Shown: in pieces, positions 52,008 through 53,645 of the stretch
Layout of the letters: each line of letters begins with the position of its first letter
Numbering within the stretch: position 1 is the first letter of the stretch
Source: Escherichia coli
GTDB taxonomy: Bacteria; Pseudomonadota; Gammaproteobacteria; Enterobacterales; Enterobacteriaceae
Assembly: GCF_002854065.1 (NCBI RefSeq)
Contig: NZ_CP024147.1
Length of the DNA: 64,000 nt
Reading direction: 5' to 3' (one strand)
Position numbers and translations under genes: made by a program
Notes under the pieces: generated by a model
What the model was told of the DNA's origin: nothing
Databases searched by the model: none
The model's input: the letters and a program-made list of their open reading frames with translations, nothing else

Positions 52008-52504
52008 GATTTTTTCCTTTGCAAGATTCACACAGTAATATCTTTCCACTCGATAATTTTTAACGCCCCTGTTGGGCAGGCGTTTGCGCATTCACCGCAT
52101 AACACACATTTCGAGGATTTTTTACTTTCGGTATTTACGGTGGCCATCATCCACGGGCATGCCGTAGTACAGGCGCTACAGCCAATACAACGTTTATGAT
52201 CGACGGTAATACAGCCTTCTTTCTGCTGCCAGGTAATCGCACCAATCGGGCAGACGTTCATGCATTGCGGCTCTTTGCATTGACGGCAGGTGTCCGCGGT
52301 ATAGTTGAGATCGCCATACAGGCCGCCGCCAGAGCCAACCCCGTTGTCGCCAAAGAAATAATTGCGATGGATTTTGATACGGGAGAAGAATGTCCCTACT
52401 GAGCCATCGTTGAAGTTGGTACAAGAGATTTCACAGCGGTGGCAACCCGTGCATCGCGCTCGCTGGGTCACCAGCTCCCCTTTGGGTGTATTTATCAACC
52501 CTAC

Positions 52505-52512
52505 TGTGCCGC
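52505..52512. repeat. left copy of the target-site duplication flanking IS1
   Basis: tgtgccgc immediately 5' of the IS1 left end. Confidence 0.85.
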
Positions 52513-52567
52513 GGTGATGCTGCCAACTTACTGATTTAGTGTATGATGGTGTTTTTGAGGTGCTCCA

Positions 52568-52843
52568 GTGGCTTCTGTTTCTATCAGCTGTCCCTCCTGT
52601 TCAGCTACTGACGGGGTGGTGCGTAACGGCAAAAGCACTGCCGGACATCAGCGCTATCTCTGCTCTCACTGCCGTAAAACATGGCAACTGCAGTTCACTT
52701 ACACCGCTTCTCAACCCGGTACGCACCAGAAAATCATTGATATGGCCATGAATGGCGTTGGATGCCGGGCAACCGCCCGCATTATGGGCGTTGGCCTCAA
52801 CACGATTTTCCGCCATTTAAAAAACTCAGGCCGCAGTCGGTAA
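52568..52843 (+). CDS. insA: IS1 InsA (transposition inhibitor / N-terminal part of transposase)
   Basis: 91-aa [43 protein letters not shown]... Confidence 0.95.
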
Positions 52844-53265
52844 CCTCGCGCATACAGCCGGGCAGTGACGTCATCGTCTGCGCGGAAATGGACGAACAGT
52901 GGGGATACGTCGGGGCTAAATCGCGCCAGCGCTGGCTGTTTTACGCGTATGACAGGCTCCGGAAGACGGTTGTTGCGCACGTATTCGGTGAACGCACTAT
53001 GGCGACGCTGGGGCGTCTTATGAGCCTGCTGTCACCCTTTGACGTGGTGATATGGATGACGGATGGCTGGCCGCTGTATGAATCCCGCCTGAAGGGAAAG
53101 CTGCACGTAATCAGCAAGCGATATACGCAGCGAATTGAGCGGCATAACCTGAATCTGAGGCAGCACCTGGCACGGCTGGGACGGAAGTCGCTGTCGTTCT
53201 CAAAATCGGTGGAGCTGCATGACAAAGTCATCGGGCATTATCTGAACATAAAACACTATCAATAA
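52762..53265 (+). CDS. insB: IS1 InsB (expressed as InsAB' transposase by -1 frameshift at A6C, 52819-52825)
   Basis: 167-aa ORF in -1 frame relative to insA; ttaaaaaac slippery run present. Confidence 0.9.
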
Positions 53266-53280
53266 GTTGGAGTCATTACC

Positions 53281-53288
53281 TGTGCCGC
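53281..53288. repeat. right copy of the target-site duplication flanking IS1
   Basis: tgtgccgc immediately 3' of the IS1 right end. Confidence 0.85.
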
Positions 53289-53631
53289 TATCAATATCTT
53301 CCTGTTTGCAACCCAAAAGTGACAGTAACGCAGGGGCAATTGTTAGACCAGCAAGGCCTTTTCCTGATATACGCAAGAATTCTAATCGCGTTAAGCCAAT
53401 ATCTAATAGTGGACGATCAACCGGGTTCATTTATTTCGCATCCTCTTCGCAAACACAGTGCTGACAATTCAGCAGCCTGATATTAAGCATTCAACTAATA
53501 CGCTGCTGACTCTGTCCTCAACACCAGATATTTTCCCTAACCCGATAGTGTATGAGAAAAGATTTAACGCCGATAAACTAATCCTTTATGGTTAGGAGAA
53601 AAAATAATGTGGTTATTCTGGGCTCTTAACA

Positions 53632-53645
53632 TTGATCATTATCAA
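53632..53645. promoter_or_regulatory. FNR box (TTGAT-N4-ATCAA) upstream of ydhY
   Basis: ttgatcattatcaa is a perfect FNR consensus, ~200 bp upstream of the ydhY start in an AT-rich intergenic region. Confidence 0.65.

Follow-up and report, generated by a model that had tools for sequence, protein, structure and literature searches.

The presence of an insertion sequence in the first gene of the ydhYVWXUT operon in a strain of Escherichia coli raised the question of what remains of the FNR-dependent expression of this operon. We analyzed a stretch of 64,000 nucleotides around the locus (contig NZ_CP024147.1), hereafter referred to as the window. An earlier note on this DNA had proposed that an IS1 element separated the FNR-activated promoter from ydhV and the genes behind it, and that downstream expression could be either reduced by polarity or altered by outward promoter activity of the element. 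Interruption of an operon's first gene by such an element is a textbook type of mutation, and near-identical alleles are already present in public genomes.

The FNR promoter upstream of ydhY

The ydhY gene is located on the minus strand with its ATG at 53430 and is the first gene of the ydhYVWXUT operon. Upstream of this start, the perfect FNR box TTGATCATTATCAA was found at 53632-53645 on the minus strand, at the same coordinates on re-reading as had been claimed before. The box is palindromic (TTGAT-N4-ATCAA), agreed with the consensus TTGAT-N4-ATCAA at 14 of the 14 specified positions, and belongs to a promoter that fires towards lower coordinates. It was the single perfect match to TTGAT-N4-ATCAA in the 64-kb window, while 0.11 matches were expected per shuffle and at least one match appeared in 11 of the 100 shuffled sequences. 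The box was kept in K-12, CUWW06, and STEC388, with the variation confined to the N4 spacer, and its centre lies 208.5 bp upstream of the ydhY ATG in the window and 207.5 bp upstream in K-12. The ydhYVWXUT operon was reported to be activated by FNR through one FNR site at -42.5, with an FNR ChIP peak at K-12 coordinate 1,752,688 (Myers 2013, PMC3688515). Since the coordinate of the ydhV-ydhY spacer given for the same genome version (1,751,846; PMC5493296) fixes the genome-version offset, this peak could be placed about 208 bp upstream of the ydhY ATG. The FNR box in the window is the published site of the operon (PMC3688515), in agreement with the suggestion of the earlier note that it fits the reported FNR activation. 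As judged from the sequence, the ydhY promoter with its FNR box is undamaged by the IS1 insertion; the promoter itself is unchanged from that of K-12 and the difference is confined to the DNA downstream. The K-12 ydhY promoter was reportedly characterized by Partridge and co-workers in 2008.

The published -42.5 spacing was also used for placing the other promoter elements. It gave a predicted transcription start at about 53596, which is derived rather than mapped, and a predicted -10 element CATTAT on the minus strand (53604-53609) with agreement at 4 of 6 positions, including A2 and T6. This hexamer, read from 53609 to 53604, occupies -13 to -8 of the predicted start, and the predicted 5'UTR of ydhY is about 166 nt. 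With a perfect box, the same distance to the ATG, and a -10-like CATTAT at a spacing fitting -42.5, the region is like the class II FNR promoters (centre near -41.5 or -42.5), among them the ydhY promoter of K-12. A NarL/NarP-like 7-2-7 pair, TAACCAT-AA-AGGATTA, was found at 53579-53594 on the minus strand, at approximately +3 to +18, with 6 of 7 positions matched in each heptamer. Matches to the NarL 7-2-7 pattern showed no excess over chance in the window (3 found against 2.76 expected), and only the position of the pair is suggestive, in that it fits the repression by NarL/NarP that has been reported for the operon.

The 5'UTR of ydhY also contained a weak terminator-like hairpin at 53459-53474 on the minus strand, with a 6-bp stem and a poor T tract, 29 nt ahead of the ATG; terminator-like hairpins were as numerous in the scanned region as expected by chance. 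A search of 51500-54600 against Rfam at E<=0.1 returned zero matches, which implied no role for known sRNAs or riboswitches.

The IS1 element, its target site, and its age

The element in ydhY was exactly 768 bp long (52513-53280), with its transposase genes on the plus strand, and was the single IS1 copy within the 64-kb window. Its terminal inverted repeats, IRL at 52513-52535 and IRR at 53258-53280, agreed at 18 of 23 positions. The insA gene (52568-52843, plus strand) encodes 91 aa with the Pfam domains Zn_ribbon_InsA (E=3e-21) and HTH_Tnp_IS1 (E=1.7e-30), and the insB' frame (52762-53265, plus strand) encodes 167 aa with DDE_Tnp_IS1 (E=2.3e-78). An A6C motif for -1 frameshifting, AAAAAAC, was read from the sequence at 52819-52825 on the plus strand. 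The length and inverted repeats, the insA/insB' organization with A6C, and a target duplication with an empty site in a relative together place the element in the IS1 family. IS1 and the ydh operon run antisense to each other: insA and insB lie on the plus strand and ydhY lies on the minus strand, so that transcripts from the FNR promoter have to cross the element in the antisense direction, as had been proposed.

The element was flanked by a direct repeat of 8 bp, TGTGCCGC, at 52505-52512 on the left and 53281-53288 on the right. The duplicated target corresponds to nucleotides 143-150 of ydhY, in codons 48-50, and the reading frame is interrupted after codon 50. Thus the insertion in ydhY itself stood up to re-examination, while the codon of about 47 given for it in the earlier note had to be replaced. 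The element and the duplication (768 + 8) added 776 bp of DNA between the FNR promoter and ydhV.

Both flanks in the window were about 100% identical to E. coli CUWW06 (NZ_CP182139.1), in which ydhY is intact and TGTGCCGC is present as a single copy at the insertion point, representing the empty site. After removal of IS1 and one copy of the duplication, the window and CUWW06 agreed at 8960 of 8961 bases from ydhS to pykF, and within positions 1-49,960 of the window the two differed by 11 substitutions. The flanks also matched O55:H7 at 99.8%. This match and the abundance of IS1 in Shigella had suggested a Shigella origin, which was discarded because IS1 occurs only once in the 64 kb and E. 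coli CUWW06 and 100416 match at about 100%. The exact same insertion was absent from 5426 complete RefSeq E. coli genomes, in which the best match at the level of the arrangement was 98.9% identical. As CUWW06 carries the empty site and agrees at all of these bases except one, the comparison of sequences identifies the insertion as a simple transposition of an intact element that is recent and strain-specific.

The sister strain E. coli 100416 (NZ_CM128593.1), whose flanks are 99.95-100% identical to those of the window, also has an intact ydhY. It carries an IS1 identical to that of the window at 768 of 768 positions, inserted in the opposite orientation about 155 bp upstream of the FNR box (window-equivalent 53797-53805). 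This implied transposition activity of the IS1 variant in this clade, with two independent hits on a single locus. Near-isogenic comparators free of IS1 are therefore available in public genomes, namely CUWW06 and, for ydhY, 100416. The window strain, CUWW06 with its intact locus, and 100416 with the same IS1 ahead of the promoter make up a naturally occurring set of near-isogenic strains, which could be used for measuring the polarity of IS1 and the effects of promoter context at an FNR promoter.

Elsewhere in the window, off-diagonal BLAST matches with 88-92% identity and offsets at multiples of about 96 bp were observed within rsxC (about 6650-7315), which points to a degenerate tandem repeat in this gene.

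Recurrent insertion of IS1 at the locus

IS1 was found in the ydhV-ydhY-fumD region of about 2.5 kb in at least 25 of the 5426 complete E. coli genomes. A search with a chimeric query detected IS1 within or adjoining a 2-kb stretch in the same orientation in 19 of the 5426 genomes, and a query with reversed IS1, needed for the opposite orientation since pieces are joined by the search only if they share a strand, detected 6 more. The rule that all of the insertions have the same orientation was abandoned as partly an artefact of the search, in view of these 6 genomes. Control chimeras, in which the same IS1 was pasted into lhr or into the ydhP-cydH spacer of the window, found 0 and 0 genomes; the ydhP-cydH control (control B) also included an AT-rich spacer.

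Eighteen independent IS1 events, including that of the window, were mapped between window-equivalent 51657 and 54093; of the six genomes detected with the reversed query, one was among those mapped. Three of them were in the 5' part of ydhV (98208, SWYHX138.33gt, and PRO_A-1496) and six in ydhY (19KM1778, C21, STEC388, VG12A2, the window, and ES7), where four independent events formed a micro-cluster within the 20 bp of 52493-52512. Two events in the ydhY 5'UTR, in Res13 and MS15047, had a common left junction at 53550; in MS15047 a deletion removed window-equivalent 53551-54337 with the FNR promoter and fumD, and ydhV contains an internal stop. Four events were upstream of the FNR box (AVS0542, FDAARGOS_1077, 100416, and THO-003) and two in fumD (700481 and S8). 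The remaining one was an IS1-linked deletion in G47-1 from the end of ydhR into ydhY, by which ydhS and ydhT to ydhV were lost.

Among the insertions in ydhY, those of STEC388, VG12A2, C21, and 19KM1778 were similar to that of the window in that the annotated ydhY is a split pseudogene in RefSeq. Their target duplications were found at window-equivalent 52503-52511, 52504-52512, 52493-52501, and 52431-52439, respectively, the first three of them no more than 12 bp from that of the window. In contrast to the likeness in position, their junctions differed from that of the window by 1 to about 74 bp, their IS1 copies by 6-45 substitutions, and their chromosomal backgrounds were other ones, with flanks 97.6-99.5% identical to the window; the IS1 of VG12A2 was in the opposite orientation. 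On these sequence differences, the four insertions are independent of the event in the window.

A different element, ISVsa5 of the IS4 family, was observed at the ydhY locus in CFSAN061769, WWCOL-256, and HCM-22C-2, where the matched span exceeded the query flanks by about 1.3 kb. Its presence in three genomes suggested that further insertion sequences besides IS1 are attracted to, or tolerated in, the region.

These data could be explained if ydhV-ydhY-fumD were a hotspot throughout the species for IS1 as well as for other insertion sequences, with a 20-bp micro-hotspot in ydhY, and if the recurrence were due to selection and not to target preference alone. If this were true, natural lineages would repeatedly silence or rewire an FNR-activated molybdoenzyme operon because this is advantageous, and insertions oriented as in the window could also give FNR-independent expression of ydhVWXUT. 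We consider such selection doubtful. IS1 prefers AT-rich targets bound by IHF, and both the ends of IS1 and IS1 hotspots have been reported to bind IHF. The GC content of the promoter region was 23%, and a candidate IHF site, TATCAATATCTTC at 53289-53301, directly adjoins the duplicated target and has one mismatch against the IHF consensus WATCAANNNNTTR. The composition and the near-consensus motif, as sequence features, appear to fit the known target preference of IS1, but control B, which gave 0 genomes, had an AT-rich spacer as well. The locus offers a natural setting in which the target preference of IS1 and selection could conveniently be told apart, and as a by-product of this analysis the hotspot is modestly interesting.

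Consequences for ydhY and the downstream genes

The insertion divided ydhY into two fragments. The 5' fragment (53281-53430, minus strand) contains codons 1-50 with an N-terminal signal-like segment and was identical to CUWW06 YdhY over 50 aa. Reading through into IS1 would add 26 IS1-encoded residues to the 50 native ones, and the resulting peptide of 76 aa would end at a premature stop codon at 53200-53202 on the minus strand. The 3' fragment (52028-52512, minus strand) has lost the start codon; its 158 codons (51-208) carry the 4Fe-4S ferredoxin domain with every 4Fe-4S motif (Pfam Fer4 families), and its frame 2 translation corresponds to residues 51-208 of intact YdhY. The most direct consequence of the insertion, as predicted from these frames, is the loss of YdhY, whose ferredoxin domain is parted from the start codon and the N-terminal segment. 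This loss was absent from the earlier note.

The genes behind ydhY, all on the minus strand, were intact. The ydhV gene (49905-52007) encodes 700 aa, of which 699 are identical to K-12, and has kept its own Shine-Dalgarno sequence, AAAGGA, at 6 nt from the ATG; any transcript reaching ydhV could be translated, since the gene has its own ribosome-binding site. The ydhW (49254-49901), ydhX (48522-49190), ydhU (47740-48525), and ydhT (46924-47736) genes were full length, with no internal stops, the same lengths as in K-12, and 98-99% identity to it. What has changed for them is the path of the transcript. The ydhV ATG at 52007 is about 1589 nt away from the predicted transcription start, compared with about 813 nt in the absence of the insertion, and 1192 nt of untranslated RNA now lie between the premature stop and ydhV.

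Our best explanation, which we regard as very likely from the sequence, is a null allele of ydhY combined with Rho-dependent polarity on ydhVWXUT, both caused by the recent transposition of IS1. Its structural part appears nearly certain, whereas the polarity on ydhVWXUT is considered likely from the sequence and from the behaviour of similar insertions. Ribosomes would leave the FNR-driven transcript at 53200, and the untranslated RNA would follow. Within this RNA, the antisense IS1 segment from 53130 to 52845 on the minus strand was rich in C and poor in G (C 31-37% and G 22-26% in most windows of 78 nt), with C/G ratios mostly of 1.3-1.65, although composition is only a crude proxy for Rho loading. 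Lying just past the premature stop, this stretch with C in excess of G resembles a Rho loading (rut) site. The scan for intrinsic terminators predicted none inside IS1 on either strand and found only the fumD terminator and the weak hairpin in the ydhY 5'UTR; with this result, Rho-independent polarity was dropped as a candidate. Polarity through Rho is expected because of the early stop, the long untranslated RNA with its C>G stretch, and the lack of a predicted intrinsic terminator. Rho would terminate most of the transcripts ahead of ydhV, and the anaerobic induction of ydhVWXUT would fall strongly. The pathway would be non-functional in any case, since the YdhY electron-transfer subunit would be missing.

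IS1 was originally discovered via strongly polar mutations, and in studies of gal and lac in the 1970s its insertions were strongly polar in both orientations and were relieved by rho mutations. Hubner, Iida and Arber are said to have described a terminator in IS1 in 1987. A literature search for an explicit statement of IS1 polarity in both orientations yielded nothing beyond entries in reference lists.

Some low FNR-independent expression of ydhV to ydhT may persist, through read-through, a weak hybrid promoter formed by IRL and its flank, or an internal promoter between ydhY and ydhV that existed before the insertion. In K-12, the spacer between ydhV and ydhY gave genomic SELEX peaks for the holoenzymes of RpoH and RpoE (PMC5493296). 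These peaks, in the spacer equivalent to 52008-52027 of the window, hint at an internal ydhV promoter, which would be downstream of IS1 and unaffected by it.

The alternative put forward by the earlier note, outward promoter activity, would require that an IRL -35 with a -10 in the flank, or an inward promoter of IRR, drives ydhVWXUT at a meaningful level without control by FNR or oxygen. A candidate hybrid promoter was found on the minus strand at 52498-52526, consisting of a -35 element TTGGCA in IRL (52526-52521, 5 of 6 positions), a 17-nt spacer, and TAGGGT in the ydhY flank (52503-52498), which fits TAnnnT and thereby keeps the three most conserved positions of a -10 element. Hybrid (fusion) promoters of IS1 were reportedly described by Prentki and co-workers in 1986, and an inward promoter in IRR is said to have been reported by Machida in 1984. 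Hybrid promoters formed with the outward -35 in the inverted repeat of IS1 have been documented for blaTEM, acrEF, and afaA (PMC8764528; PMC9330008). Orientation also speaks for such a promoter to some extent, as about 16 of the independent insertions mapped or listed for the locus were oriented as in the window and about 6 in the opposite direction, but this bias is marginal, and insertion sequences are already known to show an orientation bias linked to replication (PMC3971601). Moreover, TAGGGT matches only 3 of 6 positions of the -10 consensus and the candidate fell below the threshold of the consensus scan. The insertions were spread over ydhV, ydhY with its 5'UTR, the DNA ahead of the promoter, and fumD, and this scatter makes selection for one promoter geometry an unlikely fit. 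A complex expressed without YdhY would, in addition, probably miss its electron-transfer subunit. We regard a rewiring of the operon as unlikely and infer that, of polarity and outward promoter activity, polarity is the more likely.

An even less favorable view is taken of a neutral effect downstream, in which FNR-driven transcription crosses IS1 with little loss and ydhY alone is affected. The zero intrinsic terminators predicted on the minus strand of IS1 and the ribosome-binding site of ydhV would allow it, but the 1192 nt of untranslated RNA with a C>G stretch are the textbook condition for Rho polarity and IS1 has its polar history, so that this outcome is quite unlikely. Misplacement of an IS1 copy into ydhY by the assembler is extremely improbable: IS1 is multi-copy in E. 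coli (a median of about 10 matching places per genome) and repeats are prone to misassembly, but the junctions were exact, the 8-bp duplication is a clean copy of a sequence that is single in the empty site, and IS1 was found one base away in independent genomes.

With polarity as the preferred reading, the window strain is predicted to have lost the YdhY ferredoxin-like subunit and, very probably, the anaerobic induction of the YdhV molybdoenzyme system. The case is one of ordinary biology, and the current understanding of IS1 or of FNR is unchanged by these findings. Compared with the IS1 hybrid promoters at acrEF and at afaA in ST131, the candidate is alike in that the outward -35 of the inverted repeat faces a gene, here with TTGGCA at 17 nt from a TAnnnT hexamer; it differs in its weak -10 element and in its position inside a gene fragment about 480 nt upstream of ydhV, and it stays a candidate only. 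The closest counterparts are the classical polar IS1 insertions in gal and lac. The present allele is distinguished from them by an operon that is activated by FNR, by a duplication of 8 bp in place of the more usual 9 bp, and by a polarity that is predicted here. It shares with them a 768-bp IS1 in a promoter-proximal gene, translation that ends early inside the element, and an expected Rho-dependent drop in the expression of the promoter-distal genes in either orientation of IS1.
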